Of a stretch of 64,000 nucleotides of DNA, positions 8,934-37,300 are shown one piece after another (position 1 is the first letter of the stretch; the number at the start of each line of letters is the position of its first letter). The stretch lies in the IMG/VR virus record IMGVR_UViG_3300009000_000003. One strand, 5' to 3'. Source of the stretch: a virus. A program made the translations under genes and the position numbers. Under the pieces are notes generated by a model. It ran no database searches. It had not been told where the DNA came from and worked only from the letters and a program-made list of their open reading frames with translations.

Positions 8934-8958
8934 TAGATAATTTAAAGGAACTTAAAAC

Positions 8959-16681: not shown

Positions 16682-16697
16682 TTGAAAGGAATTTAAC

Positions 16698-17627: not shown

Positions 17628-17658
17628 TATCTTTACTTTATAAGTAATCCGGTGCTAT

Positions 17659-17683
17659 AAAGGAGGCCTAGCCTCCTTTTTTT
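17659..17683 (+). terminator. Rho-independent terminator after the tail tube gene
   Basis: AAAGGAGGC-CTA-GCCTCCTTT followed by further Ts. Confidence 0.88.
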
Positions 17684-17695
17684 ATAGGTAAAATT

Positions 17696-18649: not shown

Positions 18650-18654
18650 AATTT

Positions 18655-19116
18655 ATGACTAATTACGAATACTTTTCTGGAGCTAATGTAAAAATATCCT
18701 TTACTCAAATTAATAAATTTGACGATAATATAATCCTTCCAAAAGAAATAATTGAATGCGCAGGTATTTCTTATTCTTATCAGAATTCAAGACAACCAGT
18801 ATACTCTTACGCATCGAGTAGATTTGATGCAGTGCTACCAGGTAGGGAAATTATTCAAGGAACTTTTTTAGTTAACTATGTTTCGCCAAATTATGTAATT
18901 AACAAAATAAAAGAAACTGAAACTAATGAATTTACTTTTGATGAATTATTTACACCACACTTTGACATAACAATTAACTTTGGTAATGATAGTAATAAAA
19001 ATAGAGTAATAGAAAATTGTTTTATTATTTCCATGGGGCAAACAATCCAAATAAGTGAGCAAGTAATTATAGAAGAATATGGATTTATTGGACGCAATAT
19101 TAAAGGATCTAATTGA
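18655..19116 (+). CDS. Second tail tube paralogue
   Basis: YFSGANV, ISYSYQNSRQPVYSYAS...GREIIQGT and FDITINF are similar to the tube motifs. Confidence 0.65.
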   Translation: MTNYEYFSGANVKISFTQINKFDDNIILPKEIIECAGISYSYQNSRQPVYSYASSRFDAVLPGREIIQGTFLVNYVSPNYVINKIKETETNEFTFDELFTPHFDITINFGNDSNKNRVIENCFIISMGQTIQISEQVIIEEYGFIGRNIKGSN

Positions 19117-20024
19117 TGGGACTAGAAGGTCGAAAAATAGAAGATAACAAAGTTGTTTTTGGAGAACCTGCTACTGGAAAAGCTTTACAAGCACTACAAA
19201 GAAATTCTCCTACAGCTGAATCTATATTAAGCAGTTTACCACCAAGTGCTTTTATACCTATTCAACAAGAAACAACTTTAGTCGAAGAAGATATAGAAAA
19301 AAAAGAAAAAGCTAAACAAGAATTAGATGAGAAAGTTAATATGACAAAATATAGAAGAGAAAGAAAACGTAAACAAAGCTTACTTAAAGAAAAGAAAGAA
19401 AGTCATATTAAAAAAAGTTTGGAAGAACCAAAAGAAGAAGCTACTGTAGAAAAAACTTCTATAGAAAAAATTATAGAAACTTCTAATAAAGAAGAGGAAC
19501 TTATGAATTTAGAAGATGAATTGGCAGCTTTAGAAAAAGAAGTAGCAGCAAAAAAAGCTGAAAAAGAAAAAGCTGAACTTCAAAAAATGTCAGAAGAAAT
19601 ACAAGCAGCTCCTCAAGAAGAGCAACCTGAAATGAAAGACCAGATTTTAGAATTATTAAAGTCTGATCCAAACGCGCCAGGTATTGAAACAATTAATGCT
19701 TGGAAAGAACGTTTTGGAAAAAACGGTTTGCATGTAATGGCTTTTGGAGAAGATGATGTATACATTTACCATCACCTTACAAGAGGCGAATGGAAGAAAA
19801 TTAAAGAGCTAATGACACGTTTATCAGAAACAGATGAACAAGAAGAAATTGAAGAAAAACTAAAAGAAAAAGTTGTTCTTTATTGTGTACTTTATCCATC
19901 AGTAGATGAAAACTGGTTGGAGTACTGCAAAGCAGGAATCCTCGACTCATTATATCAAATGATTCTTTTAAATAGTGGTTTCTTAACCCCCCAGCAAGCG
20001 ATGTTATTGACTACCCAGCTATGA
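19113..20024 (+). CDS. Tail assembly chaperone-like protein (alternative internal start at 19503)
   Basis: INAWKERFG...YIYHHLTRGEWK...CVLYP...AGILDSLYQMILLNSGF chaperone-like pattern. Lies between tube and tape-measure genes. GAGGA precedes ATG 19503. Confidence 0.65.
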   Translation: MMGLEGRKIEDNKVVFGEPATGKALQALQRNSPTAESILSSLPPSAFIPIQQETTLVEEDIEKKEKAKQELDEKVNMTKYRRERKRKQSLLKEKKESHIKKSLEEPKEEATVEKTSIEKIIETSNKEEELMNLEDELAALEKEVAAKKAEKEKAELQKMSEEIQAAPQEEQPEMKDQILELLKSDPNAPGIETINAWKERFGKNGLHVMAFGEDDVYIYHHLTRGEWKKIKELMTRLSETDEQEEIEEKLKEKVVLYCVLYPSVDENWLEYCKAGILDSLYQMILLNSGFLTPQQAMLLTTQL

Positions 20025-20701
20025 GTTTATTAAGAGCATTAGAATCTAATTCTGAGCTCTACAGTACAATTTATGAAGATGTAGTTTTAAAATTCAGATT
20101 ATTAAAAATCAAAGAATACAACTACTTCAATAAAATAATTACGGGCGGTCGAATACCGCCTTTTTTAGTTTTTGAAGAAATCTTCAATTTATGTAGTTTT
20201 GATCCAGTAGAGTTCTTTCCTAAAGAGTTGCCTGTAGGATATTTTATATCTACTGGGCATTTAATTTATTATTTATCTGGAGGAAAAGAAACTAAAAATT
20301 TCTTATTAGAGATTGCTCAAACAAGAACAGAGCATCCACCTGATAGTATTTTCGAACACATGAAAAGTATTATATTTACTGCTTTTCCTTCTTTATGTTT
20401 AAAAGACATAGATGAAATGACGGAAAAAGAATTTGTTCGTAATTTTGTTACTGCTGAAAACAAATTAATTAAAACAATGCAAGGATATACGCCGCTCGAT
20501 TTAAAGAAAATTTACGAAGAAATTTATGAATCAAAAACTGAAGAAGTAGAAAAAAAGAGCGAAGTAGTACATAATGTTAAGAATATGGAACAAGAGCTTG
20601 GTTATTGGGAAGTACAAGAAGCAGAAGCTAAATTTATTGAAGAAGAAAAAGCAAGATTAACAAGAGAGCATTTAGCAAAGCTAGATCAAAGAAAAGGTTA
20701 G
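20021..20701 (+). CDS. Second tail assembly chaperone-like protein
   Basis: FRLLKIKEY...EEIFNLC and LKDIDEMTEKEF patterns. Synteny. Confidence 0.5.
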   Translation: MSLLRALESNSELYSTIYEDVVLKFRLLKIKEYNYFNKIITGGRIPPFLVFEEIFNLCSFDPVEFFPKELPVGYFISTGHLIYYLSGGKETKNFLLEIAQTRTEHPPDSIFEHMKSIIFTAFPSLCLKDIDEMTEKEFVRNFVTAENKLIKTMQGYTPLDLKKIYEEIYESKTEEVEKKSEVVHNVKNMEQELGYWEVQEAEAKFIEEEKARLTREHLAKLDQRKG

Positions 20702-20704
20702 TTT

Positions 20705-23700
20705 ATGTTTGCAAGCCAAGGGCCGGGAGGCATTTACTATTCTGCAGTACAGCAAGAACCAGAGATGCACCCCTTGATTGAAATGGGAGCTTCTTTAGCA
20801 CCTTATGTGACCCTTGGTATGGGAGCAAACTATCTTGCTAAACTTAAATATAAAAATAGTAAAGAAATAACAGCTTATGATGTAGCTTTAACAAAAACAC
20901 GTAACCTTTTAAATAAAGGTTTAGGAGGATTTTTTAATACATTTCGTATAGCAGAAATGGGATCGTTTAATTTAAGTGGAGAAGCTTTAGGTTTAAATTT
21001 AAAACAATCAGTATTGGATCCTTCAAAACAAGTAAGGCAACAAGTTTTTGGAAGTGAATACTTTAATAAAAATACAAATAAGTTATTAAAAGAAATACTT
21101 GGTGAAAGTGATTACGAAAAAATATCTGCGCACTTAATTGGTGGGCAAGATAATTTTGAATTAATCTATGAAATGGGTACTGAAGATAAAAGAAAAGGTA
21201 ATTTAATATTTAGAGAACTACAATCTGAATTTGTAGATACAGTAGACAGTACAGGCAAACCAATAAAGCAAAAAGTTTACAAACCAAAAACAGGAACTGA
21301 AAGATTAATTTCTCAAAATGTTGCTTTACAATATGGTGTTTCAGGAGCTGATACTTTAGATCTTTTAGAAGGGGGAGACTTTCAAGGAAGAATAAATCCC
21401 ATCACTCAAGGTGTTTATCAAAATCTTGTTTCTGGAGAAGATGTAAATTTTAAAGAAGTTTTTAAAAGTAGCATTAGTGGGCAACAATCAAGAGTAATGC
21501 TTGTTCCTAGCGTAAGTGGATCGTTAGATAATGTAGGAGATTTAAAAAGACGTACAAGCGTTTTAACAGGGCATTTGTCAGCAGGTATTGATAGATTTAA
21601 TAGACTTATTGATGCAACTACAAATCAAATACCTATGTTTAACCAAATAAAAGAAAAATTATTTGGTGATCAAGATTTTGGTTTAAGTTTAAAAACAACT
21701 CCAGATGCATTTTATAAGCAATTCTTTAGTATAGGTTTAAAAGCTTCTAAAATAGGTGGAGCTTACATGGGGCTGCAAACTATAGATCACTATAGAGAGC
21801 AGTTTGGATTTTTAGGAAATGTAGTAGCATCAAGTGCAGTTTCTGGAGGACTAGCGCTAGCTTATACTAAAATTGCAAAAAAAGCTGATACAGCTTTTGC
21901 TACTAAACTAGGATTAGGAAGCTTAGCAATTCAACTAGCAATGCCGGGGTTTGATAAAGGCGTTGTAGAAGGCTTAGCGACTACTGCAGTAAATGTAGAT
22001 ATAGGAAGATCCTATATAGGTCAATTCACAGGATTATCGTATGTAAGAAGAGGGATCGAAGGAATACTTCCTGGATTTACAGAACCTGAAATGGGGATTG
22101 CTTTAGGATTAGGAGTAGCTGGTTTATCTTACTCTGAATATCCAAAAAGATTTGCTGAAAGATTAGCAAGCGGAAAACTACATACAGGAGATAAAATATT
22201 CCAAAGTATAGATAACTTTTTGTCTCCTAAGTTTGGAGCTTTAGTAGGAGAAAGCTACTCACCACCAGCATCTAAAAAAGATATTATCTCACAAAACTTA
22301 ATTGATATCTTATATCCAGGCAAAGATCCAGCAACTAAAGAATACAGTGAAAAATTTATATCTAAAAATCCATTAGCTCAAACTTTGATGGGAATGGATG
22401 AAACCAATCCTTTATTTAAAGAATATAAAACAAAAATTGATGATATTTTACAAGGCAAAGGATTTGACGAGTTAGATAAAGATCAAATTAAAAATTTAAA
22501 ATCTTTTTTTAAAGATAATAAAGATTTAATTAAACAAATGATTCCTGGAATTGACGCAGGCCAATTAGAATTAAAAGTAGATGATTTTGATTATACTTTA
22601 AAAAATATAGAAAGAAGCGAAGTTTATAAAGCATATACACAAAACAATGAAATTAACGCTTCTTTATTAAAAAGAATAAATTACATTAATAATAAATATT
22701 CTAGCGGAGAAGGAGTTTTAAATAATATTTCTAGAAGAATAGAAATATTTGGTGCCGAAATGTATCACAGTTTTTATGGTGCATCTATGACTGGAGAAGT
22801 AGATGTAGACATAGACGGCATAGAAACAAAAACTAAATTAGCTGATGGAACATTTAAAAATTTAGATTATGAAACTGTAGCTAAAAGTTTAAAAGCTTCT
22901 CCAATTATGAAACGTTTAGGTACTCTTACTTTAGGTACTGCATTTTTGCATCAAATGGTAACTTCTGGATTTTTTGGAATGATGGAAAACCCTGATGAAT
23001 TAAAAGAAATATATTCAGGAGAAAAGCTAGTAGAAGTTAAGAAAGGTAGATGGTGGGAAGCTGGAGCTACTCCTTATGAAGGTGGGGAAACTAGATATTT
23101 TAGACCGCACGCTTATGTTCAGATGATGACTAAAGCAAAAGATAGATCAGTTTGGGGAGATGAAGTAGATGAGTACAACCCATTAACTAGATTCTTATTA
23201 AAGAACTTTACTTATCATTTAGAACGTAAAAATTACTATGACAGGCCCTACCCTATAACGGGTGCTGCATTTGAAGATGTGCCAGTTCTAGGAGGCATTT
23301 TGAGTGCTACTATTGGTAGAGTAATTAAACCTACTAAATTAATGCATGAAGAAGAGTTAAGGAGGGTTGGTGCTGGAGGAATAAATGAAATTGCTTATCA
23401 AACAGAATATGGATCGTCTCCAGAATTAGGACAAATTCCACCAGGAGTACCTACTAGCCCATATGGAACAATGGCTAGTTTAGGAAAAATACAATATCAA
23501 TTTAGAGAACTTGAAGGTTTGACTGGTTATGGAAAAAATGTTTTACAAAAAATGTTTACAGGTAGAGAAATTCTAGGAACTCGACAATACATCATGGCGA
23601 ATTCAAATATGATGAGTTCGACAATTAGAGATTTTTGGGATCAAGATTTGGGTGGCTTTGCTTTTATGTCAGAGCCAATTAGACGTTTACTACCTAGACC

Positions 23701-25129
23701 TAGAGCTGAAATTGAAACATACAATCCAATAATGAATTCAATGCCTTCGTATTTACCAGATAAATTTAAACAAGGAGACCCTTATCGTTTAATTGATAAT
23801 GGCGCAGTAAGACTTCCTGGCAAAGGATATGAAGCTGTAAACCCAGATGTAGCCGGAATGGACCCTGAAGATTATCCACTTATACACAAGTATAAAATAA
23901 TGGCTGATGTAGCTCCTCAATCTCGAGTAACAATGAAAATGAGAGAAGAGCTTTTAGAAAGAGAAGTAGCAGAAATATTAACTAACAGAGAAAAAGAAAT
24001 GTTAGCCAAAATATCTGAGTATCACTACAAGCGATTAGCTGCTACAAGAGATGAAACATTTCATGAGAACGCAATTAAAATTCCAGTGCTTTCTTCTTTG
24101 ATTGGAGAAACATATGCTGGAGCAACTTCATTAATGAGAAAAACTGCAGCTGCTGCAGAGAACTTAATGCCTGGTGGTTTTAGACCTCTAAGTAAATTAA
24201 CTGGACATACAAGAGATGCTATTGAAGTTTATGAAATGGAGCGTTTGTATAACACTAGTAACTCTTTTTGGGACGCCCCTATAAGAGACTGGTTTAGGCC
24301 CGCAATGTATTCTGCAGCACATGCTATGGGTTGGGATGGAAAACCTATACATGTACAAAAGAGAGAAGCTTTAGATGAGCATTTTGATAAACTTCAATTC
24401 ATGAAGTTTATGGCTTTAGCTGACCAGGCATCTAATGCAAAAGATAGAAAGCGTTATTTAGGGTTAGCTGCTAGAACAAGAACAGGTGTAAACCCTAACG
24501 GAGACGCGCTCTCTTTATACTTGTCATTACCTAGTGCAGAAAAAAGATTTTTTGATGCGTTCGCTAATGCTAGAGAATCAGATCGACAAAGAATTTTAGA
24601 AATGGTTCCAGACGATCAAAAAGCATTATATAAAACAGTTTGGTCTAGAATAGATGCTGGTCAAGAATCGGAGATGCTTGCTTCAAGTAAACCAATTATT
24701 AATGAGCAACATATGTACTCTCAATTAGCTAAAGTAAGAGAAGAGATGAAAATGATGCCTATGCCTGAAGCGGATTGGATTGGTTGGCATAAAGACGTAG
24801 ACATTAATGATATTAAAGTAAAATATGTTGATAATCTTGGTGCAGAAATACATGACTATGACATGTGGGAATCTCAAGTCAGAAAAGTCTCTAGAAGGCC
24901 CTATTTAGAAGGAAGTGACCTATTTCTATATAAGGGTAGGGGGTTTAATAGAAACAGCGCTAGACAAGAGTTTTTAAGAGGATTTGACAATTATAGTGAA
25001 TTGAACTCTGGTAAAATTTTATTAAATAGTAGCGGTGATTTTTTTGAGAATTCCAGAGCTGAAATTTATTATAAAGATTCTAGAGAAGCTGAAATACTAA
25101 ATATGATGTCTACAGCAATTAGAGGTTAA
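20705..25129 (+). CDS. Large tape-measure/ejection-type virion protein
   Basis: 1474 aa after the tail chaperones. Several Gly/Ala-rich hydrophobic segments and a conserved-looking C-half (KGRWWEAGATPYEGG..YFRPH, DWIGWHKDVD). Confidence 0.6.
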   Translation: MFASQGPGGIYYSAVQQEPEMHPLIEMGASLAPYVTLGMGANYLAKLKYKNSKEITAYDVALTKTRNLLNKGLGGFFNTFRIAEMGSFNLSGEALGLNLKQSVLDPSKQVRQQVFGSEYFNKNTNKLLKEILGESDYEKISAHLIGGQDNFELIYEMGTEDKRKGNLIFRELQSEFVDTVDSTGKPIKQKVYKPKTGTERLISQNVALQYGVSGADTLDLLEGGDFQGRINPITQGVYQNLVSGEDVNFKEVFKSSISGQQSRVMLVPSVSGSLDNVGDLKRRTSVLTGHLSAGIDRFNRLIDATTNQIPMFNQIKEKLFGDQDFGLSLKTTPDAFYKQFFSIGLKASKIGGAYMGLQTIDHYREQFGFLGNVVASSAVSGGLALAYTKIAKKADTAFATKLGLGSLAIQLAMPGFDKGVVEGLATTAVNVDIGRSYIGQFTGLSYVRRGIEGILPGFTEPEMGIALGLGVAGLSYSEYPKRFAERLASGKLHTGDKIFQSIDNFLSPKFGALVGESYSPPASKKDIISQNLIDILYPGKDPATKEYSEKFISKNPLAQTLMGMDETNPLFKEYKTKIDDILQGKGFDELDKDQIKNLKSFFKDNKDLIKQMIPGIDAGQLELKVDDFDYTLKNIERSEVYKAYTQNNEINASLLKRINYINNKYSSGEGVLNNISRRIEIFGAEMYHSFYGASMTGEVDVDIDGIETKTKLADGTFKNLDYETVAKSLKASPIMKRLGTLTLGTAFLHQMVTSGFFGMMENPDELKEIYSGEKLVEVKKGRWWEAGATPYEGGETRYFRPHAYVQMMTKAKDRSVWGDEVDEYNPLTRFLLKNFTYHLERKNYYDRPYPITGAAFEDVPVLGGILSATIGRVIKPTKLMHEEELRRVGAGGINEIAYQTEYGSSPELGQIPPGVPTSPYGTMASLGKIQYQFRELEGLTGYGKNVLQKMFTGREILGTRQYIMANSNMMSSTIRDFWDQDLGGFAFMSEPIRRLLPRPRAEIETYNPIMNSMPSYLPDKFKQGDPYRLIDNGAVRLPGKGYEAVNPDVAGMDPEDYPLIHKYKIMADVAPQSRVTMKMREELLEREVAEILTNREKEMLAKISEYHYKRLAATRDETFHENAIKIPVLSSLIGETYAGATSLMRKTAAAAENLMPGGFRPLSKLTGHTRDAIEVYEMERLYNTSNSFWDAPIRDWFRPAMYSAAHAMGWDGKPIHVQKREALDEHFDKLQFMKFMALADQASNAKDRKRYLGLAARTRTGVNPNGDALSLYLSLPSAEKRFFDAFANARESDRQRILEMVPDDQKALYKTVWSRIDAGQESEMLASSKPIINEQHMYSQLAKVREEMKMMPMPEADWIGWHKDVDINDIKVKYVDNLGAEIHDYDMWESQVRKVSRRPYLEGSDLFLYKGRGFNRNSARQEFLRGFDNYSELNSGKILLNSSGDFFENSRAEIYYKDSREAEILNMMSTAIRG

Positions 25130-25130
25130 A

Positions 25131-28100
25131 ATGAAAAAACCAAGCTTTTTAAATTTTTCAGAAGAGCAAAATCAAAACAGAAAAAATACAGTTCAAAATC
25201 TTTTAGCTGCTGGAGCAGTAGGAGGTTTAGGGTATGCTGGTTATAAAAACTTTTTAAACTCACCTGCAGAAATAACAAAAGCGTTAACAGGTTTAAATGC
25301 TCCTACAGAATTAAGGCAAGCAGGAGAAGAAATAGGTAAAGGGCTTCGCACTTCAAAAGAAGTTTTAGAAACAAGTAAAAAAATAGAGTTAGATAAATTT
25401 GTTGAAAATATCAACAACCAATTAGATGATATTTTAGATCAAACAAGTAACGTTGCTCCAGAAGAACGCAGAGCTTTTTTTGCTAGTTTTTTTGAAACAG
25501 TAAAAAATGAACAAATAAGCGCTGGAGTAAATACAGATGATTTACTTAAACAAGCTTACGATGATGTAGCTACGCTTAATGATACACAAAAAGCAGTATT
25601 AACAGACATGTTCAATATGCAAATAAAAGGTTCTGAAAAAACAAGCCGAAGATTTAATAAAGCTTATGCAAAATATAGTTCTAATATGAATTTATTTGCA
25701 GAGACTACAAAAAGAGAAATTCCGTCTGGAATTCCAACAAGTAATATTAGAAGGAATGTTAGCGTACCTAGTGATATTCAAAGCAAATACAATGAAATTG
25801 TTAATTTAGCTAGAGGAAGTAATTATAGCGTAAGTTTAGATGAAGTAGATGAAGGTGGTGTCAAAGGACTGTATGCTCGATTCACAAAAAATGGAGGACA
25901 AAGTGAAACATTAGTTTTAAGAGCAGGTACAGACACAGCAGGAAATCCAATCATAAGAGCTGGAGAAAATTTACAAACACGTTATGTAGCTCCATTAAAA
26001 GTTTTAAACGCCCCCGCTATGATTGATAGTAGAACTATGCGTTCTGTAAATGCAGGTACAGTAAAACAAGCAATGGGAAATGGAATAATTACAGATTATG
26101 CAGATTATGTATTTAATTTATTCAAATCGCAAATCGGAGGACGTAGTGGGTTTGCAAATTTAAACAGAAGTAATTTTAGCAAGTTTAATCAACTAATAAC
26201 TGCTTCTGCGATGTATGCTCCTTCAGAAGCTGGAAAACTATCTGATGCTTCTAGCAGAGCGATAGCTTCAAGCAGAAAACTATTTTCTAGTTCGTTTTTA
26301 ATTTCAGGGTTAGAGCAATTTAGTCCAGAGCAAAGAGGTCAAGTTAATAAAATTCTATTAGAAGCTTTTCCTCAGGATTTTGCAGGTGTAAGCTCTGTGC
26401 AAACTATGACTAGAGATTATGAAAATCCTTTTATGCGAGGCAGCAATCTAAGTTTTGCAAAATTAGGATATGCAGGAAAAGATATTCCAGGATATGCAAG
26501 TCCATTTAAATATTTAAAATTTTATGGTCGAGATTCTATAGACCGTGCAGTACAAAAACAAACAGCGCGTGAATACCAGATGATAGGTAGAGAAGAAACT
26601 GTACTAGGTATTGATGGTATAGATAAGTTTGGTAAGGGGGGTGTTATAAAAACAACTGGAGTTGGAAGTGATTTAATAGGAATTAATAAAGCTTATTCTG
26701 GAACAGCTACAGGTTTAAATTTAGGCGGAGTTATATTTAAGAAAAAAGCTGCTGAAAAATTAGGATTAGCTGAAGGTGTGGCTTATCTAGGAGGTACCGT
26801 CAGAAATGAAATAATATCTACTTTGACGGTTAACCCCAATATTGGAATTGCAGAAACAAACTTATTAAAAAAATTAAAGCAAGGTAGTATAACTGTAGGT
26901 GGTGCAGGAGCAAATTATAGCGTAGATGAATTTTTTCAAAAATACGCAGGAAAGGATGGAAGGGTAATTGTAGGAGAAATTGATACAGGTTTTAGTACAA
27001 TACAAAGAAGAAGCGGTTTAGAAAGCTTCCAATTAGAATTGTATGATCAGGCAGGTGGCTCTAGACCTAATTATAAAATTAGACAAACTTCTCAACTTAG
27101 AAATCCAGGAACAAAACTTTTTGGTTTTGCTACAAAAGATACAACTAATCAAATAACTGAAGAACAGTTACGCGCTAGATTAAAAAATGTTGGAGCAGAA
27201 GATTTTGGAGATTTATATTTCGGAGAAAATGTAGGAGGAAATATAAAATCAACTTTAGTAACAACTTCTGGACAATTAAAAAAATCTAGTACATATTTTA
27301 GCAACTTTATGGTTGGAGGTTTTGCTCAGATTGGAGGAGATGTTGCAAAATTAGAAAATGCAATTAGGGCTGATATCGGTGGAGATACAAATTATTTAAA
27401 CTTAATTAATAAAACTTATGGAACATCTTATGCTAATTTAAATCAAGCGCCAGATGCTTATCGAAGTGGTGTTCAACTTTTAGCTACAGCACAAAATATA
27501 ATAACATCAGGAAGAACCCAAAGATTAGGATCAAGGGAGCTTGGGCATATAGTAGGAGTTTTAGAAGATAGTATTGGTAAGTTTGGTATGGACGAAAACT
27601 TATTTAATAAAATAATAAGTAAAGGAGATGATGCTTTTCAAAAAGCAGCTAGAAGCAATATTGGCTTTGGTGTAACTTATGCAACTACTGGTGGTGTTCA
27701 TTCTGAGTTAAAAAGAAATTTGGCTAGAATGGAGCCTCGCGCATTCAATTATATGTATACTTCATTACGAAGCAATATGGGCTTAAGTGCAAATGAAGCT
27801 AAAAAATATATGGCTTCTTTTGTAGGAAGGATGGAAGGTTCAACAGAAAAATCTTTAATATTGCCAGGAATGACAGCAGCTCAATTTTCACTAAGTCCAA
27901 TGAATGAAATGGAATTTAGTAAATATGTATCTTCTGTAGGCAATATAGGAGCTATGGATGACGCAGATGTAGCTAAATTGTTTTCGCTAGGCCAAGGAAA
28001 TGAATCTGAAGTAATTGAAATACTTTCTAAGTATGGTCAAGGCAGTACAGTTGATTTAAAAAAAGTAATTTCAGATCCTAAAAAACTAACAGCTATTTCA

Positions 28101-31100
28101 GAAATGCTTGGAGGAAGAACAAGTTTATTTTTCGGAGGAGCGCAAGTTTTTGATAACTTATCAGGATTTTCATTAAAAAGCGGAGAAGAATTATTAAATA
28201 TAGAAAATGAATATAATAGATCAGTAACAGATTTAATAACTTCTATTTCGTCTATTAGAGATTCAAGATCAGACACTGAGTTAAGTAATCGTACTCAACA
28301 ATTTAAATACGCTAAAAAATACATGGCTGATATAACTGGTAAAACAATAAGGCAAAGTTTATCAGGAAGCGTAAGTGGTTCTGGATCTTATATGGGTGCA
28401 GGTATTATTTTAGGAAATTCTAAAGCAAATTCTACATTAGTATCGAATAATGTTACTGACATGGGAGAGCTAACTAATGCTTTTGAAAAAAATAAAGGTT
28501 ATGTAGTTTTTCAAGATGCTCAAGCGTTTTTAGATGGGATGTCTACATATAGAGATGGTTTGAAAGGAGAGAATAAAGATAAAGCTGTAGCAAAAAGAGT
28601 AAGGCAATTTTTTCTAGGGATGCATACTAAAGATAAAGAAGCTGTTACAGCTATGGTTATGCGTAATCCAAACATTAACTTTACTCACTTTTTACCAGGC
28701 ATGGGGTTGATGCGCTATGATTTTAATAAAGGTAATCGAGATCAATTCTTTGAAATGTTTAGAGGAAGATCAGTACCTTTAATTAATTACGACAGAGTAA
28801 ATGAAATTAATGAAAAACTTATGGGTATTTATGATCCTAAAGCAAAAAAACATAGTGGAAAAGGTTTGTTTGAAGTTTTAAATGCAGAAAATCCTGCAAA
28901 TATAAGAAGGCTCCTTTATGCACATTTAGAAGGTTTGGGAACTACAGACGGATATAGTACAGATGATCTTAAAAATAGATTTGGAAAAGATTATGATATT
29001 TTAAAAAAACATTACAAAAAAGCTGGTGCTAGCTATAAGTATTATTTAGATAAAGAAATAAAATTAAAGAAAAAAGTTCAAAAAACTCTTAAAACAAGAA
29101 TGAAAAAAGGTGAAGATCTAAAAATAGATTTAGATAACGTACAAAAAGAAATACAAGATTTATTAAAAAAACAAAAAGAAGCACGTTATAAAGAAGGAAA
29201 GCTTACAAGTAAAGCTGTACATGATTCCTTAATGGAATATTATGAAACTATTTTTAAAGATTCAAAATTTCAAATACAACAAAATTCTTTTTTAAGAAAT
29301 CTTGAACAGTTTGCTTTTTCAGAAAATTATGAAAAAGATGATGTGAGTAAAACAATATCAGATACTTTAGAAAAAATAAAAGGAATGAAAAATTACAGTA
29401 AATTAGACGTTTTTCATCATTTAATGGGAATGGATTTTGGAGAAATAAAAACTTTAAAATATGATGGAAAAGAAGAATCTAAAATTAAAAAATATTATTC
29501 TACAGAAGAAACAGATAAAGTAGCTGCTAAAATAAAAAAATTGTTAGATGAAAAAAAAGCGCTTTTAGATCCAAGTGTCTCTAATAATAAAATACAAGGA
29601 AATAAATTAAATATTTTAGAAAGACAATTAGAATTAAACAAAAACAGTTTAACTTCATTTGAAGACATAGCAAGGCTTTATGAACAAAGAAGCGATGAAA
29701 TAATTCAAACTAAGTCTGGGAAAGATATTACTGTAGGGGAACAATTAGATAAATATTTTGCATCAATGTTAAGACATCATCAAAACTTTGGAGAAGTTGG
29801 TGGAGGGCGTATTTATTTCCCTCAAATAGACGTAGAAGGAACATTAGAAAGCGGAGGAAAGTCATTTAAATTCAGCGAACGTATAGACTTTTCAAGAATG
29901 ATGATTGGTGACTTTGACGCTGATTATTATCAAGTATTTCATGATACTGATGCATTTAACAAAAATGCTGCAGACCATTTTGGTTTGTATAAAGCTGGTG
30001 GTGAGTACTTAATTCATAAACAATTACTTGGTGAAGGTATGGCTCAACTTGGAAAACGTTTAGGTGTAGGAGAAATATCTATAGGTCAAAGCGTTTTAGA
30101 TGAGTATCAAAAAGAAAAAGTAATTAAAGAAGTAGGCGGGTTAGATGTACAAGTAAAGATTGGTATGCTTGGTGCTATTCGTGCAGCAGAAGAAAATTCA
30201 TTGCGTACTGGCGGGAAAGAATATATGTCAGAAAGTATGCGTAGTGTATCTTCATTAGTTGCAGTAGCGCAGGAAGTTTTAGCTATTAAAGGTAAATCAT
30301 TACCTACCGCAGCAAATGTAGCAGAAGCTTTTACTAGCTCTTTGAAAGAATCTTATAAAACAGGTAAAGGAGATGCTATTTTTAACTTTTTCCAAGAAAA
30401 TGTTTTTAAAGGAACATTACTAGAAAAAGAAGGTAAAATTAAATTTTCTAATATTGATTTTCTCAATTTAGATGAAAGCTTAGAAACAACTAAACAATTA
30501 AAAAGTTTTTTAATGGACATCGAAATTGATACTAGTGTTTTTAGAAGACATCTAGATGAATTGGCTTCTAATGTTAAAAAATATGGACTCGATGCATTAG
30601 GTTCAGATACTCGTACTGGTAGTGCTTTGATGTCAGGTGACATAGCTTCAATTCAACTATTAAATAGACTCATGTCTGCTTCTGCAGAAGGAGGCTTATT
30701 TGATTCAAGCGGAAACTTTGATCAAAGTCAGCTTGAAAGAATTTCAAGAGACATAAGCGGTGGTTCTAAACAAGTATTTTTTAAAGCAGCCCCAAGAAAT
30801 TTTGGAGGTTTAATTGCAGGAGTTTTAGGAGGATCTTACTTGTTGGGAGCTACAAATAATGTATCTTCGCTGCAACTATCAGAAGAAAACTTTTCAGATA
30901 TTAGAGCAAGTCAAAATATAGGCAATAAACATGTATCTCAAATGTTTGCAAACAAAGATCATAATGGGTCTATTAGTAGTTTAAACAATAGTGGTTATGA
31001 TTCTACTTTTTACCAAAGACCTATTAATCAAGGGGAAACTATGGTAATTAAAAATAATAGAACTCGTTTTTATGGTGAAGCTGCAACTCAATCAGAAGCT

Positions 31101-31211
31101 ATGGGATCGGCACATAGATTTGCATCTGCAGGTGGAAAAGCTTTTGTAGGTATACAAGATAATAGAATGCCAATTTCTAATTCTTATATTGCTAATTCTT
31201 TAAGAGATTAA
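25131..31211 (+). CDS. Large tape-measure-locus virion protein with putative two-barrel (DPBB) RNA polymerase motifs; candidate virion RNA polymerase
   Basis: 2026 aa. LAEGVAYL (26772), GTKLFGFATKD (27108-27140), MVMRNP (28659-28670) and MIGDFDADYY (29910-29924) occur in RNAP order. Hydrophobic terminal segments. Confidence 0.6.
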   Translation: MKKPSFLNFSEEQNQNRKNTVQNLLAAGAVGGLGYAGYKNFLNSPAEITKALTGLNAPTELRQAGEEIGKGLRTSKEVLETSKKIELDKFVENINNQLDDILDQTSNVAPEERRAFFASFFETVKNEQISAGVNTDDLLKQAYDDVATLNDTQKAVLTDMFNMQIKGSEKTSRRFNKAYAKYSSNMNLFAETTKREIPSGIPTSNIRRNVSVPSDIQSKYNEIVNLARGSNYSVSLDEVDEGGVKGLYARFTKNGGQSETLVLRAGTDTAGNPIIRAGENLQTRYVAPLKVLNAPAMIDSRTMRSVNAGTVKQAMGNGIITDYADYVFNLFKSQIGGRSGFANLNRSNFSKFNQLITASAMYAPSEAGKLSDASSRAIASSRKLFSSSFLISGLEQFSPEQRGQVNKILLEAFPQDFAGVSSVQTMTRDYENPFMRGSNLSFAKLGYAGKDIPGYASPFKYLKFYGRDSIDRAVQKQTAREYQMIGREETVLGIDGIDKFGKGGVIKTTGVGSDLIGINKAYSGTATGLNLGGVIFKKKAAEKLGLAEGVAYLGGTVRNEIISTLTVNPNIGIAETNLLKKLKQGSITVGGAGANYSVDEFFQKYAGKDGRVIVGEIDTGFSTIQRRSGLESFQLELYDQAGGSRPNYKIRQTSQLRNPGTKLFGFATKDTTNQITEEQLRARLKNVGAEDFGDLYFGENVGGNIKSTLVTTSGQLKKSSTYFSNFMVGGFAQIGGDVAKLENAIRADIGGDTNYLNLINKTYGTSYANLNQAPDAYRSGVQLLATAQNIITSGRTQRLGSRELGHIVGVLEDSIGKFGMDENLFNKIISKGDDAFQKAARSNIGFGVTYATTGGVHSELKRNLARMEPRAFNYMYTSLRSNMGLSANEAKKYMASFVGRMEGSTEKSLILPGMTAAQFSLSPMNEMEFSKYVSSVGNIGAMDDADVAKLFSLGQGNESEVIEILSKYGQGSTVDLKKVISDPKKLTAISEMLGGRTSLFFGGAQVFDNLSGFSLKSGEELLNIENEYNRSVTDLITSISSIRDSRSDTELSNRTQQFKYAKKYMADITGKTIRQSLSGSVSGSGSYMGAGIILGNSKANSTLVSNNVTDMGELTNAFEKNKGYVVFQDAQAFLDGMSTYRDGLKGENKDKAVAKRVRQFFLGMHTKDKEAVTAMVMRNPNINFTHFLPGMGLMRYDFNKGNRDQFFEMFRGRSVPLINYDRVNEINEKLMGIYDPKAKKHSGKGLFEVLNAENPANIRRLLYAHLEGLGTTDGYSTDDLKNRFGKDYDILKKHYKKAGASYKYYLDKEIKLKKKVQKTLKTRMKKGEDLKIDLDNVQKEIQDLLKKQKEARYKEGKLTSKAVHDSLMEYYETIFKDSKFQIQQNSFLRNLEQFAFSENYEKDDVSKTISDTLEKIKGMKNYSKLDVFHHLMGMDFGEIKTLKYDGKEESKIKKYYSTEETDKVAAKIKKLLDEKKALLDPSVSNNKIQGNKLNILERQLELNKNSLTSFEDIARLYEQRSDEIIQTKSGKDITVGEQLDKYFASMLRHHQNFGEVGGGRIYFPQIDVEGTLESGGKSFKFSERIDFSRMMIGDFDADYYQVFHDTDAFNKNAADHFGLYKAGGEYLIHKQLLGEGMAQLGKRLGVGEISIGQSVLDEYQKEKVIKEVGGLDVQVKIGMLGAIRAAEENSLRTGGKEYMSESMRSVSSLVAVAQEVLAIKGKSLPTAANVAEAFTSSLKESYKTGKGDAIFNFFQENVFKGTLLEKEGKIKFSNIDFLNLDESLETTKQLKSFLMDIEIDTSVFRRHLDELASNVKKYGLDALGSDTRTGSALMSGDIASIQLLNRLMSASAEGGLFDSSGNFDQSQLERISRDISGGSKQVFFKAAPRNFGGLIAGVLGGSYLLGATNNVSSLQLSEENFSDIRASQNIGNKHVSQMFANKDHNGSISSLNNSGYDSTFYQRPINQGETMVIKNNRTRFYGEAATQSEAMGSAHRFASAGGKAFVGIQDNRMPISNSYIANSLRD

Positions 31212-31212
31212 T

Positions 31213-32619
31213 ATGTTAGATAATTTAATTAATGTTGATGCTAATCAGGAAGAAATTAATTTTTATATTAATGACGTAGGTCTATTTGTAGCACCTACAA
31301 GCATTTCTATACATAAAGAAGGAATGACATATAGTTCTAAAACTTTGCGCACCAATACAAGTGTAAAATTTGGATCTGGTAACGGAATTTACCACGTACA
31401 ATTAAGCTTAGTATTTCCTCCAGATAGCCTAGTTCAGTTACATAGAATCATTGTACAAATAAAAAATAACCCATTTGTTTACATAGAAAATGATTTTATT
31501 AAATCTTCAATAGACCCATTAGAATTAAATGAGCCTATTAAAGATAGAGACAATTCTTTATTTTTTACTTGCATGGGAATTAATGTAATCAATCACCCGA
31601 GTTCTCCCGCATCATTTATTTGTGAAGTAGATTTAAGATTATTTAATGAAAAAGCTTACTCTTCAAGATTAGAATATAAAGATGATGTAACTGAAAATAT
31701 TTACAAAGATCAAAAATTGACTGAGATATCTTTTAATATTCCGTTTGGAGACAGCGAAGAATTAAATATTATTAATGAATTTCCAATTAATCAAAGTAAT
31801 TCAATAAGAAGCTATAATAAAATTTTTGCAGATAAAAAAAATCCAACTAGAAAAGTAAGGCAACCTTACAAATCTAAAATATATATAAGGTATTCTAATT
31901 GGTTGCAAAATTATTATCTTCAAGATTGTTTTCGAATAAATATATTTGAAATATTAGAAGAAGAATATTCAAAAGATGAAATTAAAAACATTTTATATAA
32001 TTTAAAATTAGGTAATATAGGCCTACATAATCTTTTTTATACAAGTGTTAATTTAAATAAATTAAGAGATAATATAATTTATCAAATGTTATCTCATGCA
32101 ACGTTTACGCAAGTGTTAATGAGGAATTTTATAGAATTTAATTTAAATTATGAACTGTTAAAAGAAATTCAAGATTTTATAAATAAAAATGGTTTGCAAG
32201 GTAGAGCAGAGCAAGCAAAAAAATTAATGAGTTATTTTGAAAATAATGAAGCAATAGAAAATATAAGCGATGAAGAATTTTTAAATAATGAATTTACAAG
32301 TTCACTTAATTTGCCCTTAATTGATAATTTAGTTCACCCAAATATTTCTTATGATTTTGTAAGTATTCTTCCAAAAATAAGTGAAGAAACAATTTTAAAT
32401 TATAAGGAAGATGATTTTAATCTAAATATATATCATATAAAATATGCTAATATTTCAATAAATAATATAAAAGTTTTATCACCAGCAGAAGGTATAATAT
32501 CATTTAAAGATAATGTAATAGAAATACAAACAAATAATTATGGAATTATTAAATATTTAAATATTCAATGCACAGATAATTTAAAAGAATTTTATAAAAG
32601 TACAAATTATCAAGTATAA
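31213..32619 (+). CDS. Baseplate/tail-associated protein, N-terminal part of a gene interrupted by a single in-frame TAA
   Basis: Same frame as 32641..34320. The stop falls within an M23-like YQV*AGSVVG motif. Confidence 0.55.
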   Translation: MLDNLINVDANQEEINFYINDVGLFVAPTSISIHKEGMTYSSKTLRTNTSVKFGSGNGIYHVQLSLVFPPDSLVQLHRIIVQIKNNPFVYIENDFIKSSIDPLELNEPIKDRDNSLFFTCMGINVINHPSSPASFICEVDLRLFNEKAYSSRLEYKDDVTENIYKDQKLTEISFNIPFGDSEELNIINEFPINQSNSIRSYNKIFADKKNPTRKVRQPYKSKIYIRYSNWLQNYYLQDCFRINIFEILEEEYSKDEIKNILYNLKLGNIGLHNLFYTSVNLNKLRDNIIYQMLSHATFTQVLMRNFIEFNLNYELLKEIQDFINKNGLQGRAEQAKKLMSYFENNEAIENISDEEFLNNEFTSSLNLPLIDNLVHPNISYDFVSILPKISEETILNYKEDDFNLNIYHIKYANISINNIKVLSPAEGIISFKDNVIEIQTNNYGIIKYLNIQCTDNLKEFYKSTNYQV

Positions 32620-32640
32620 GCTGGAAGCGTTGTTGGTTTT

Positions 32641-34320
32641 ATGAAAAACAATTATGTTAGTGTTGAATTATTAGGAAAAATAAAAAATAAATTTGAATCT
32701 TTAAAAGAAGTAAAAAATACTTTTTTTAAAAACAGTACTAAAGATAAATTAAATTTAATGAAAGAATATACTGATTATATTAAATCTAACTTTGATTTAT
32801 ATATTGAAAGAGCTGGATTAGAAAATATATTTCAAAATGAAACAAACATAACTTTTAATTCAGAATTAACATTAGCAGATATTCAAAGACTTACTGGAAT
32901 TAAAAAACCAGTAGATTTTGAAGAACCAGAATTTAAAAATAATAATACTAGTATAACTAGTATATCTGGATCACTAAGACATATTATGTCTAGTATTCCT
33001 ATATTAGGATTAGAATATCCTACACATCAATTTTTAGGTTCAATTGAACCAGTATATCAAATAAATTTATTAGAAAATAACCGTTTAATAAATGAAGAAT
33101 CTTCTAAGATAAAAAGATTAGAAGAATTTCGTAGAAACGGAATGTTTTATATTAAAAACTTTCCAGAAATACCAGATTCAAATCAATTAATTGTAGACTC
33201 TTTTATTACTAGATTGTTTGGAAGTTATAGAGAGTTTGAAAGTTTTCAAGTACTTGATGAAGAAACTTTAAAAAAGAAAAATTTTAACATTTCATTAGAC
33301 TCTATGGATACTTTTACGGTTGATGGTTCACCAAATACTTACGGAGTGAATCTTAGATTATCTGAATCCAAGTCATACAATGACGAGAATATAAAACCGG
33401 CAGCAAGTAATAAGCTTGGAGATAATGCTAAAAAAGAAATTCAAAAATATTTTGAAAACAAAATGCCAATTTATAAAGAAAGTTTTTTTAATAGTTCTGC
33501 ACCAGTAAAAAATGCTCCAAAAGCAAGCAAAATTATACCACAAAACAATGATTATGTTTTTATGAATTGGACTTCAGAGCGAGGATTTTTTGATGCAGAA
33601 ACTTTTTACCAGAGACCACGTTCTTATAAATATAGCAATAAATTAGTTCCTTTTTTACAAAATTTTGATAATAATGAACAAGATCCAATAGGCCTGCTTT
33701 ACAGTCCAGATAAAAATTTATATGCATTAGCTAATTTATTAGATGGTATTCAAAATATTTTAAATCATTATGAATCGCCAAATAATCCTGGAAAAGTAGG
33801 ATACAGTATAAATCTTTTTTCAACATTAAGAGATTATCATATAGTTCCTAATTCTACTAGTTTTAAAAGTGCTCACAAAACAGGATCGGCAGCAGATACA
33901 GTTGTAAGTGGATTAAATGTTATGGAATTTGCTTCTATATGCAAATATTTGATAGATCACAATCATATTATACACCCTTATGCTGAAAGTAGAGGGGTTT
34001 CTCAACTTACTATTGGAATAGGGATGTATGGAGCAAATGCGCATGATATTAATGTAAAAATGTCAGATAGATATGCTGGTGTAAGAGGATTTGTACATAT
34101 AGATTTAAACCCAACTGTAAAGTTTCTTAATTTTCCAAGAGGAATGCTGTATAATTTTAATTTTAATACAAAGTGGAATAGACTCTGGTTTGGAAAAGAT
34201 GCTAAAGATAAATTTAATCCAGGAACAAGTGTATTCGGATGGTGGTCCCAAAATTATAATCAAATAATTGAGACTATTAAGCCAAAACTATTAGAAGCTA
34301 TAGAAAAATCTAAGGAATAA
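32641..34320 (+). CDS. Baseplate/tail-associated protein with C-terminal peptidase M15-like (LAS Zn-metallopeptidase) domain
   Basis: STLRD...SAHKTGSAAD (H 33874, D 33895)...GIGMY...GFVHID (H 34096): the H-x6-D and HxD zinc ligands of M15 peptidases. Confidence 0.7.
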   Translation: MKNNYVSVELLGKIKNKFESLKEVKNTFFKNSTKDKLNLMKEYTDYIKSNFDLYIERAGLENIFQNETNITFNSELTLADIQRLTGIKKPVDFEEPEFKNNNTSITSISGSLRHIMSSIPILGLEYPTHQFLGSIEPVYQINLLENNRLINEESSKIKRLEEFRRNGMFYIKNFPEIPDSNQLIVDSFITRLFGSYREFESFQVLDEETLKKKNFNISLDSMDTFTVDGSPNTYGVNLRLSESKSYNDENIKPAASNKLGDNAKKEIQKYFENKMPIYKESFFNSSAPVKNAPKASKIIPQNNDYVFMNWTSERGFFDAETFYQRPRSYKYSNKLVPFLQNFDNNEQDPIGLLYSPDKNLYALANLLDGIQNILNHYESPNNPGKVGYSINLFSTLRDYHIVPNSTSFKSAHKTGSAADTVVSGLNVMEFASICKYLIDHNHIIHPYAESRGVSQLTIGIGMYGANAHDINVKMSDRYAGVRGFVHIDLNPTVKFLNFPRGMLYNFNFNTKWNRLWFGKDAKDKFNPGTSVFGWWSQNYNQIIETIKPKLLEAIEKSKE

Positions 34321-34325
34321 AAGCA

Positions 34326-37300
34326 ATGGCTGATTTGGATCTAAATTTAAATGATTTAGAAGAAAGTGATTCTTCTGAAGTTAAAACCGAAGGAAATGAG
34401 CTATTATCTCCTGCTAAAAAAGAACCGTTAAATTTAAATGAAGATCAACGAGAACAATATTTTAAAGATTTAAAAGCACAATTGAATATAATGAGAGGTG
34501 GGAGATTTTCAAAAGGGAGCTATTATACTTATGATGATAAAATAAAAATTAGCGAAAATTATGAAGCTTCAGGTGGACCGATTTTAATTATTGAAAATAA
34601 TGAAAATTCTAGCAACGACAATGTAAATCAATTTCTTCAAGAATTAAAATCAAAAAAATTGATTTCAATACCATCTACGCAAGATATGAAAATTGTAGAA
34701 AAGAAAAAAGATGGTAAAAAAAGAATAGAAATTTATATAAAACCAAAACCATATATTAAAGAAAAAATAAAAAATGCTGAACTTTTAAAAGCATTTAAAG
34801 ATTTTGCGTCACTAATATTAACTGAACCTTATTTATATAAAGATACAATTGAAGAACAAGATCAAGAGCTAAAAAGAATTCAATCAGAATTATACAATTT
34901 AAATATTTATCCTTGTTTTTATAATTTTATAGAGGCTTCTATTTTTGGTTCAGAAAATGCTCACTACGAATCTGCAAGTTTCTTTAGAAGTATAATGGAA
35001 AACCAAGGAAAAATTGGACTTGCTACTAGTGCTGCTAGTACAGCTGGTAGTGTTACAGCAACTGGACTTGCATTAGCGAGTATATACGCAACAATAAGTG
35101 TTCCAGTCATAGTTGTAAGTGGAGCTGCGTTTGTGATTGTAGGAGGAACTGTTTATTTTGTAAGCTCTTTATTTGATAGTAGTACAGAAAATAGTGCTAA
35201 ATTAAATTATAAAAGAGTTTTATATTCTAAAAATAGCTATGATGTAAATAAATTTAATTATTATATAAATGATATTTATAAATATGAAATTAAAGAAATA
35301 ATTGGTGACATCAGTTTTGATCGAGATTTATTATCTGAATTAGCAAGCGGAAATACAGTTGCTAAAGCAACAGAAACTTATTTAAAAAAAGTAATTTCAA
35401 AGCATTCTACAATTAAAATATTTGAAGAAGAAATTTTAAAAAGTAATGTTGCTTCTAAAATAAATAATTTAATTAGTAAATCTTTACAACAAGAATTAAA
35501 AGATAAATCTGATAATAATGAATTAAGCAATATTTTTTCACAAGACGTAATCGGAAAAGAATACAATGATTATATAACTTGGTTATTTGATATACCTGCT
35601 GATTACGATTTAGATTTTAATGATTATGAAGCTGAAGAAATTTTTGATATTGAAGAAAGAGAAAAAAATAAACATTATTTTAGTGACTCTCAGTTTATTA
35701 TTAAAAACGATGAGGATTTATTTTGGACAGATAATCACAAAGTAGGAGATACAGAATCTCCTTTAGCAAAATTGTTTGATTATCAATGGGCAAATAAAGA
35801 AAAGCCTTTAGAAAGTGTAACTGTTAAAGAATTTTATTTTGACAAAAGAAAAAAAGAAATAGAATCTCAACAAAATAAAAAGCTAACTCTCCTAAAAGAA
35901 ATGTATGAAATGCTTTTGGAAGATGCTGCTATTTTAAATTTTGATAATATTCTAGAAGAAAATCCAGAGCTAGCAGAAACAATAAATGAAGAATCTGTTT
36001 TCAAATTATTAGAAGACAGCCCATATCCAGATATTATTACACCTTTTAATCCGTTACTTAAAAAAAGAAATTTAAAAGCAAATAAATACGCGCCTTGGTT
36101 TTACTATTCAGATTCTATTTCTAATGGTGAATTAAAAAAAGAAAAAACAATTTTAAATACTATTTTAAACAGAAGTGAAGAATTTAAAAACCAATTAACA
36201 AACCCAAGCAACGCTTTATTTGGAGGACCTTCAAGTAAACTTCCTCTTAAAATAGATACATGGTCTCCTGGAATATTTACTTCTGGAGATAAAAATTTAA
36301 AAACTTTTAAAGATATTCGTTATGATGAAGATGAAATAAAAGTTAGCAATTCTGGAACAATTGACATACCAGCCGATACTATTAAAGACGGTAAAAAAGC
36401 TGTCGAAACTTTTTTAGATAATTTAAAAAAACAGCATCAAGGAAATTTAAACGAAGTTAAAAGTTTTAAAAAGAATTTTGGAAATAAATATTTTAATAAT
36501 ATAATTGAAAAACCAATAACAGATAAAACTTTAAATAAATTAAAAGAAAATATAATTCCTGAAGAGTCAAATCAATCTTTAACAAAACTCTCTGACGAAT
36601 CATTTAAAGATTATAAAAAATATTCAGGTATCAAAGGAGCTTTTCCTACTTTTAGATTATATATAGTAGAAGAAGACGCTATACATAGTTCAAGATATAC
36701 TGCTTATGACGACTTCTTTAATTATAACTCTGTTATATCTTTTAGAGTCCATACAGATAAAGATATGTCTGCATCTACAGCTAATATCCAGGTGCAGAAT
36801 ATTTCTGGGATATTAGACGGAACTAAAAAGTTTGTTAAGCGAGACATTGATATACAACGATCAGATTATAATCAGAATGCAGATGATTTAATTAATGACC
36901 AAATAGAATCTATAGTTTTAAGAAAAGGTATTAACGTTCAACTAAGAGCTGGTTATGGAGCAAGTACGGAAGATTTAGATGTATTAATATCAGGGCGAAT
37001 TACTGAAATAAATTATAGTAACGATAATATGATCTGTAATCTTACTGTACAAAGCTATGGCGTTGAATTAGACGTAGTGTCTTATGGGCAAAATGCTAAA
37101 GATAATACTAGTGCAACATTTGATACGACCCACCAATTGTTAGGTTCTTTAATATTAAGCAAAGAATTAAAACATTTTGGAAGGGTTCGCACTGGAAAAA
37201 TTTTTCAAACACACGAAAATAAATCTCCAAGCTTAGATACAGAAAAATATTACGATTCAGAAGCTTTTGATTTTAATTATACTTATGGATTGTATGATTG

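Follow-up and report, generated by a model that had tools for sequence, protein, structure and literature searches.

The stretch of viral DNA considered here, IMG/VR virus record IMGVR_UViG_3300009000_000003 (64,000 nucleotides; referred to as a whole as the window), carries a 2026-amino-acid (aa) open reading frame (ORF) at positions 25131-31211 of the plus strand, within a long same-strand operon of an uncultured phage of about 155 kb. Conserved residues and the modelled fold of a homologue indicate that this gene very probably encodes a highly diverged single-chain two-barrel polymerase with an intact active site. In such enzymes RNA is made at a two-barrel active site in which magnesium is held by three aspartates. 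Given that it is a polymerase, it is likely that the protein is borne in the virion, and given both, early transcription would very likely be its task. The explanation taken in full, a virion-delivered early two-barrel RNA polymerase (RNAP), is the one we favour, with some reserve; its packaging and early transcription parts are suggested by gene position, a weakly shared C-terminal end and analogy.

A reading of the window from sequence only had based the polymerase assignment on four motifs (E548, K662/K669, R1178 and D1594-D1598), and both the ORF and all four motifs were located at the residues where that reading had placed them. DFDAD (D1594-D1598) is the sole DxDxD within the protein, and the pattern D-hydrophobic-D-[GAS]-D is unique to it among the 36 long ORFs of the window that were checked. 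In a shuffle control, D-hydrophobic-D-[GA]-D arose in 93 of 5000 sequences and the ordered motif chain in seven. Single-sequence motif evidence on its own is suggestive, not decisive, and the conservation of these motifs in homologues is stronger evidence than the shuffle statistics. In bacterial beta the two conserved lysines are 8 residues apart; here the pair is present and conserved, but with a spacing of 7. The hydrophobic Gly/Ala segments reported at both ends do exist (residues 24-38 and 1891-1905, with 15-residue hydropathy of 1.2 and 1.6), and most of the homologues examined have them too, but neither is transmembrane-like when scored over 19 residues.

The protein was not recognised by Pfam (E 0.05), PHROGs, or sequence or profile searches of the PDB; the absence of a Pfam match at E 0.05 extends to PF05183, the family of YonO and of eukaryotes' RNA-dependent RNA polymerases (RdRP), and tblastn of the window protein or of a distant homologue against cultured phages gave no match. 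Word searches found about two dozen homologues, and a profile of the N-terminal core (residues 470-1211), from which the DxDxD loop was excluded, found 102 among 1.84 billion proteins, the family amounting to about 100 clusters at 50% identity. Most of the long proteins in this set of 102 have a DxD[GA]D loop near the corresponding position. Residues were counted in an alignment of 87 homologues, where the lysines K662, K669 and K718 are kept in 86, 83 and 84 proteins, R1178 and P1180 of the RxP motif in 86 and 87, the aspartates D1594, D1596 and D1598 in 86, 85 and 86, and the downstream helix residues K1661, K1666, E1715 and K1722 in 82, 81, 85 and 85. Catalytic-type residues are thus kept in 81-87 of the 87 at about 20% identity, while adjacent positions vary; for the DFDxD loop, the RNP and the two lysines, by whose conservation the sequence-only reading proposed to be judged, the figure is 83-87. 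The acidic motif is at the claimed site but is only moderately conserved (E548 in 54 and G549 in 82 of the 87). The DFDAD variant is real but not special to the window protein, as 47 homologues have Gly and 37 have Ala at the fourth position of the loop, and one homologue has DFVAD. In a midpoint-rooted FastTree of the family core, the window protein falls within a clade of 26 members (support 1.0), all of them with Ala, and the sister clade has DFDGD throughout; because Ala is also found elsewhere in the core tree, we regard it as a tolerated variant. Feature matches in the ESM Atlas stayed below 0.9 (0.85 for an unnamed match, 0.76-0.83 for tape-measure clusters) and are treated as leads only.

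The fold was examined in P0044 (residues 330-1529; 53 alignment rows), the nearest homologue with a short insert, which shares 344 of 1037 aligned residues (33%) with the window protein, has all motif residues in register and matches the core profile at E 2e-196. Its model reached a predicted local distance difference test score (pLDDT) of 86.9 and a predicted template modelling score (pTM) of 0.87, and places the equivalents of K662 and K669 on neighbouring strands (353-356 and 359-365). With this model, RNAP subunits made up 46 of the top 50 rows of a Foldseek search against the PDB, the best match being the T. thermophilus beta subunit (E 4e-3, probability 0.94), and two-barrel polymerases filled all of the top 12 rows of an exhaustive VIA-align search, in which the unrelated rows were mostly helical hairpins of 60 residues. 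The N-terminal half (model residues 1-572) aligned in VIA-align with beta/Rpb2 chains at Z up to 10.4, and in a second structural search the best beta-type match reached a higher score (Z 12.4, 371 aligned, root mean square deviation (rmsd) 4.9). The C-terminal half (632-1200) aligned with beta'/Rpb1 chains at Z 7.7-9.2. Three single-chain enzymes were matched by VIA-align across both halves: QDE-1 (Z 10.2, 433 aligned, rmsd 5.4), RDR2 (Z 8.2) and P74-26 gp62 (Z 8.1, 349 aligned, rmsd 4.3). The beta'/Rpb1 alignments start at about model residue 632, at the N-terminus of those chains, and the Rpb1 alignments, judged by their ranges only, cover the conserved Lys/Glu helices downstream of DxDxD; from their order, the helices bearing K1661/K1666/G1669 and E1715/K1722 would be of the bridge and trigger type. 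In the computed architecture a long connector joins a beta-like half, in which the two lysines are conserved, to a beta'-like half with RxP and DxDxD, the polymerase-like regions spanning about residues 330-1730 with some 300 residues on each side. Judged by residue conservation and its homologue's model, the window protein belongs to the two-barrel superfamily in each of the features that could be tested here. The sequence-only reading had set beforehand two findings that would tell against it, a predicted structure without double-psi beta-barrels joining aspartates and lysines and a loop not conserved in homologues; what was found was a homologue that matches two-barrel RNAPs over both halves and a conserved loop, so that a divergent two-barrel RNAP is well supported by conserved motifs and homologue fold.

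One large feature had been overlooked in the sequence-only reading. In the homologue model an insertion site lies between strands of the barrel bearing RxP and DxDxD, and the corresponding interval, R1195 to G1557, ranges from 61 to 1435 residues across the family, with 362 in the window protein, where RxP and DxDxD stand 416 residues apart. The insertion of the window protein (about 350 residues) is charged (K+R 20%, D+E 16%) and poorly conserved, and helix-hairpin-helix matches were found inside that of the homologues P0010 and P0021. On the homologue's model, the aspartate barrel of the window protein must close around these roughly 350 residues.

The location claimed for the gene, among the tail genes of a contractile-tailed phage, was confirmed: around it lie portal, major capsid, sheath, tube-family, hub-like and baseplate-wedge genes. 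The gene order upstream, over 14099..20701, is that of the cultured phages 0305phi8-36 and ME3 (the identity of the chaperone genes is taken from position only), and the 1905-aa gene downstream is homologous to 0305phi8-36 gp147 and ME3 gp37. Single-base gaps separate the polymerase gene from both flanking genes, and every fetched locus with flanks has the same gene order around it. With homologous flanks, gp145/gp35-like upstream and gp147/gp37-like downstream, the window gene thus lies in the slot that gp146 fills in 0305phi8-36 and, like it, is one gene away from the chaperone slot and before the hub. gp146 has been assigned as the tape measure, mainly from tail length (PMC2147016), and is on record as a virion protein by mass spectrometry. 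The last 55 or so residues of the family resemble those of gp146, WH1 gp095, KLEB27-3 gp034 and MTATph1 CDS31 (hhalign 75%, E 2.5e-5, 53 columns), a similarity that would tie the family, if modestly, to a protein proven to be in the virion. Slot proteins range from 1988 to 2778 aa, while the gp145-like neighbour has 1459-1479 aa in seven loci. This length spread argues against the slot protein being a simple ruler, and points to the gp145-like neighbour, or to a slot protein with its insertion looped out, in that role.

The only cultured relatives of the capsid are ME3, 0305phi8-36, MTATph1, WH1, Edson and KLEB27-3 (23-27% identity), and the same-slot proteins of ME3, WH1, Edson and KLEB27-3 have RxP and DxDxD. 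Neither gp146 nor the slot proteins of ME3, WH1 and KLEB27-3 are annotated as polymerases. ME3 gp36 has K632-x-F-x4-K639, R1174-E-P and a DxDxD at 1217, all invariant in relatives of 30-38% identity; this motif chain arose in 1 of 5000 shuffles, with one spacing widened post hoc. RYP and ADxDGD are common to WH1 gp095 and KLEB27-3 gp034, and the Edson slot protein is 94% identical to that of WH1 over the part searched. The spacing from RxP to DxDxD is about 40 residues in these cultured slot proteins, compared with 416 in the window protein. The predicted structure of ME3 gp36 (A0A172Q021, accession confirmed) matched the P0044 model with probability 0.99 and E 1.2e-3, and that of A0A7R7G2L5, taken as WH1 gp095 from its length only, at E 6e-5. 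The WH1 and KLEB27-3 records label their slot proteins structural, the basis not being stated, and a literature search found no paper on the virion proteomes of these two phages. No DxDxD is present in 0305phi8-36 gp146 or MTATph1 CDS27. The MTATph1 slot gene (L009:30512-37868) is apparently interrupted by a transposase-bearing insertion, CDS27 looking like its N-terminal part and CDS31 like its C-terminal part, both without DxDxD.

ME3 has a further region of interest, at 226849-222114 on the minus strand of NC_041884 (L035), far from the tail genes. A 798-aa ORF there (A0A172Q0S6 by length) matches the model at E 1.8e-5 and ends right after RNP; a 254-codon ORF and then an ORF with SDVDGD follow. 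This is possibly a second two-barrel polymerase gene, with an intron carrying a homing endonuclease at the family's insertion point. The PF05183 search of ME3 was uninformative, its control being silent.

We propose that the window gene encodes an active single-chain double-psi beta-barrel DNA-dependent RNAP, which would be synthesised late, when the tail genes are expressed, and incorporated into the particle via its conserved ends, with the gp145-like neighbour, in or beside the tail tube. On tail contraction it would be ejected unfolded or as separated domains, because an intact enzyme this large should not pass the tail tube; non-compact delivery has been proposed for P23-45 gp96 (10.1101/2022.12.01.518664). 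The active site would be assembled inside the cell, and the first-entering phage genes, possibly including a second, non-virion polymerase gene, would be transcribed without the host polymerase. The candidate second, interrupted gene of ME3 would fit a two-polymerase scheme. A wider proposal can be put forward only tentatively, being rather doubtful when all its parts are taken jointly: the tape-slot protein across the ME3/0305phi8-36 myoviruses would be a two-barrel polymerase threaded through the contractile tail, which refolds after ejection around a split barrel, remains membrane-bound through its hydrophobic ends and links the first transcription with the entry of the genome, whilst gp146 and its MTATph1 counterpart would have kept the structural role and lost catalysis, so that ruler and polymerase would be interconvertible.

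Several results weigh against this interpretation and should be considered with caution. Residues 500-1699 of the window protein itself, folded with 11 sequences, gave a pLDDT of 46 and no structural match, so that its fold is transferred by homology from P0044. No single PDB match in Foldseek fell below E 0.001 and the VIA-align Z scores are moderate, although the halves match the two cognate subunits in the right order, with the conserved residues in the right halves. E548 varies among homologues. gp146 has no DxDxD and no detectable similarity to the family outside the last 55 or so residues, and profile comparisons of the family with ME3 gp36 (probability 2-7%) and with WH1/KLEB27-3 (probability 0.7%) were not significant.

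Other explanations draw on some of the same observations. The one that survives best, though we consider it unlikely, is an active two-barrel RNAP made during infection, in the manner of SPbeta YonO or P23-45 gp64, whose gene just happens to lie in the tail operon and which would serve transcription at middle or late times. Presence of the window protein in the virion is something we infer; the structural matches include P74-26 gp62, which is not a virion enzyme, and the connector, at about 310 residues, could form a clamp, a feature that gp96, which does pass the tail, is without. Against this stand the fixed place between gp145-like and hub-like genes with their 1-base gaps, the conservation of its Gly/Ala ends, the likeness of its C-terminal module to that of virion slot proteins, the structural label in the WH1 and KLEB27-3 records, and the separate polymerase that ME3 appears to have far from its tail genes. 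Less likely again is a two-barrel nucleotidyltransferase that is carried in the virion but makes mainly something other than mRNA, and that serves in replication priming, in repair of injected ends or as a genome-pulling motor. The two-barrel enzymes do include QDE-1-like polymerases and PolD (PMC7824862), with QDE-1 and RDR2 among the whole-chain matches, and some insertions contain helix-hairpin-helix DNA-binding motifs; however, the characterised single-chain phage members make mRNA (10.1101/2022.12.01.518664, 10.1101/2020.03.07.982082), and, as a weak point, PolD is not among the matches listed. Finally, a structural tape-measure or ejection protein on a polymerase fold, making no RNA and using its metal site for DNA conduction or assembly, could explain why the slot works without the motif in 0305phi8-36 and MTATph1, the Ala for Gly in the loop with DFVAD in one homologue, and the barrel interrupted by a large insertion, but it is very improbable when aspartates, lysines, RxP and downstream Lys/Glu are so widely kept while their neighbours vary and phi14:2 gp66 can be active without Gly at the fourth position (10.1101/2020.03.07.982082).

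Among known systems the virion-delivered polymerase proposed here would be closest in its workings to P23-45 gp96, the tape-measure-fused virion RNAP of a Thermus siphophage (Chaban et al., 10.1101/2022.12.01.518664, PMC10770324). Both are single-chain two-barrel polymerases at the tape-measure position with a DxDxD loop, and both probably partner with a second, non-virion polymerase. However, gp96 is a protein of 5002 aa in which a long tape bearing peptidase and membrane domains carries the RNAP (residues 327-1124) at its N-terminus, and has DFDGD, no clamp, a short connector and a siphovirus tail, whereas the window protein has 2026 aa, a connector of about 310 residues, DFDAD, a split barrel and a contractile tail. 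Neither Pfam nor PHROGs assign it a domain, it lacks a strong membrane segment and it has about 300 residues after the core, the long tape of gp96 being absent; the parallel drawn in the sequence-only reading with an RNAP fused to a long separate tape thus fails, the polymerase-like regions filling most of the chain. gp96 gave no sequence match and was not among the 50 structural matches listed, an absence which is not exclusion. By analogy, the window protein may work like gp96, but it is not within that family as defined, by its lack of a long tape, longer connector, split barrel and contractile tail.

The crAss-like phi14:2 gp66 is likewise a single chain of about 2100 aa with a non-Gly fourth loop residue (DFDID); its virion delivery is proven and the non-Gly residue, compatible with activity, is tied to a self-inhibited state (10.1101/2020.03.07.982082). 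It differs in belonging to a short-tailed phage, in not being a tape-measure-slot gene and in its connector of about 140 residues, and it showed no sequence similarity and was not among the 50 structural matches listed, which again does not exclude a relationship. QDE-1/RDR2, the YonO-like enzymes and P74-26 gp62 / P23-45 gp64 share the whole-chain structural match over both barrels but are not virion tail proteins, and the window protein has no Pfam RdRP match. The multisubunit cores (beta/beta', Rpb2/Rpb1, poxvirus, African swine fever virus, phiKZ, AR9) have the same motif order and gave the highest Z for the N-terminal half; unlike them, the window protein is one chain, with 7-11% identity and without the HGNKG or NADFDGD consensus. 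With 0305phi8-36 gp146, ME3 gp36, WH1 gp095 and KLEB27-3 gp034 it has in common the slot, the lineage, the C-terminal end and a homologous neighbour. In the literature found on the ME3/0305phi8-36 lineage only YonO-like enzymes are described, not this family, and no description of the family was found in literature that left subscription journals largely uncovered.

Features of the polymerase gene and its neighbours in the window (positions in nucleotides)
Feature	Position	Strand	Basis
Sheath gene, three genes of the tube family and two at the tail-chaperone position	14099..20701	+	PHROG 16991, 9206; gene order
1474-aa homologue of 0305phi8-36 gp145 / ME3 gp35 (virion protein), alternative tape-measure candidate	20705..25129	+	E 2e-45 and 4e-54
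Probable single-chain two-barrel polymerase gene, 2026 aa, slot of 0305phi8-36 gp146 / ME3 gp36	25131..31211	+	
N-terminal Gly/Ala-rich, weakly hydrophobic segment, residues 24-38	25200..25244	+	most homologues examined
Beta/Rpb2-like part, about residues 330-862, with lysine-bearing barrel	26118..27716	+	mapped from homologue model
E548-G549, candidate acidic motif of beta-type barrel	26772..26777	+	E 54/87, G 82/87; role inferred
K662 and K669, candidate catalytic lysines	27114..27137	+	86/87 and 83/87; adjacent model strands
Connector between barrels, about 310 residues, mostly helical	27717..28640	+	homologue model
R1178-N-P1180, RxP motif of beta'-type barrel	28662..28670	+	86/87 and 87/87
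Hypervariable charged insertion inside aspartate barrel, about residues 1205-1549	28743..29777	+	family alignment
DFDAD, candidate Mg-binding loop, D1594/D1596/D1598	29910..29924	+	86, 85, 86 of 87
Bridge-helix-like (K1661, K1666, G1669) and trigger-helix-like (E1715, K1722) helices	30081..30299	+	81-86/87
C-terminal Gly/Ala segment (1891-1905) and terminal module like the ends of cultured slot proteins, including gp146	30801..31208	+	
1035-aa gene (split by one base in the window) and 1905-aa gp147-like hub gene	31213..40043	+	

An identical intact copy of the gene is present in a second assembly (L021), on a 154.6-kb contig, and the whole gene was also found on one 66-kb contig of run X1, possibly the window DNA's own source; the runs with at least half of the sequence words are labelled soil, estuary and marine, and no RNA run was among those listed. 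Over the gene's first 0.5-1.5 kb (25131-26634) estuary and marine strains are about 7-9% divergent, the remainder being nearly identical on most contigs, and this 5' part is a possible recombined segment. Elsewhere in the family, an apparent natural split into beta and beta-prime genes in L018 was rejected, as one extra A in a homopolymer (L018:9996-10001), probably an error, breaks the gene and the cluster includes a full-length member. Another copy (L013:4629-10121) is broken by a 20-base deletion in a single assembly, and a third (L003:10001-17633), from a polished assembly, is in three pieces.

In the neighbouring genes, the TAA at 32617-32619 that splits the 1035-aa gene into ORFs of 468 and 559 aa is an error or rare variant, because all four runs compared read C at 32619 (TAC) and other assemblies have one 1035-aa gene. 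The three consecutive PHROG 9206 ('major head protein') genes at 16698-19116 correspond in position to gp140/141 of 0305phi8-36, which are recorded as tail tube and paralogue. At 8959-10293 lies the capsid gene of the window, and over it (8001-10000) G+C content is 46% with the AT skew reversed, compared with about 30% G+C elsewhere, which may reflect high-expression codon use. Among other phages, the giant gp080 of the cultured cyanomyovirus Ma-LMM01, a Microcystis phage (L036:7701-18389, minus strand, 3562 aa; A0A7J4 by length), with RSP at 2477 and GDFDGD at 2537, is a weak structural match to the model (E 1.6e-4) and a candidate unannotated two-barrel polymerase. The best viral structure matches, A0A8S5SD80 in BFVD (Siphoviridae sp. 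ctnpt50 'minor tail protein') and the uncharacterised A0A6J5NLU4 (E 1e-8 and 1e-14), are possible further tape-associated polymerases.

Proof that two-barrel polymerases are delivered by the virion exists for only a few groups of phages, and for tape-associated delivery it is limited to a single group of Thermus siphoviruses. The family described here is one that Pfam, PHROGs and PDB sequence searches have missed. If the explanation we favour is true, phages with contractile tails also use tape-associated polymerase delivery, and a virion polymerase is present in several cultured phages that were believed to be without one. It also raises the physical question of how an enzyme of 225 kDa, its catalytic barrel interrupted, gets through the tail tube and becomes active, for which ME3, WH1, Edson and KLEB27-3 offer bench systems and 0305phi8-36 a natural motif-less control.

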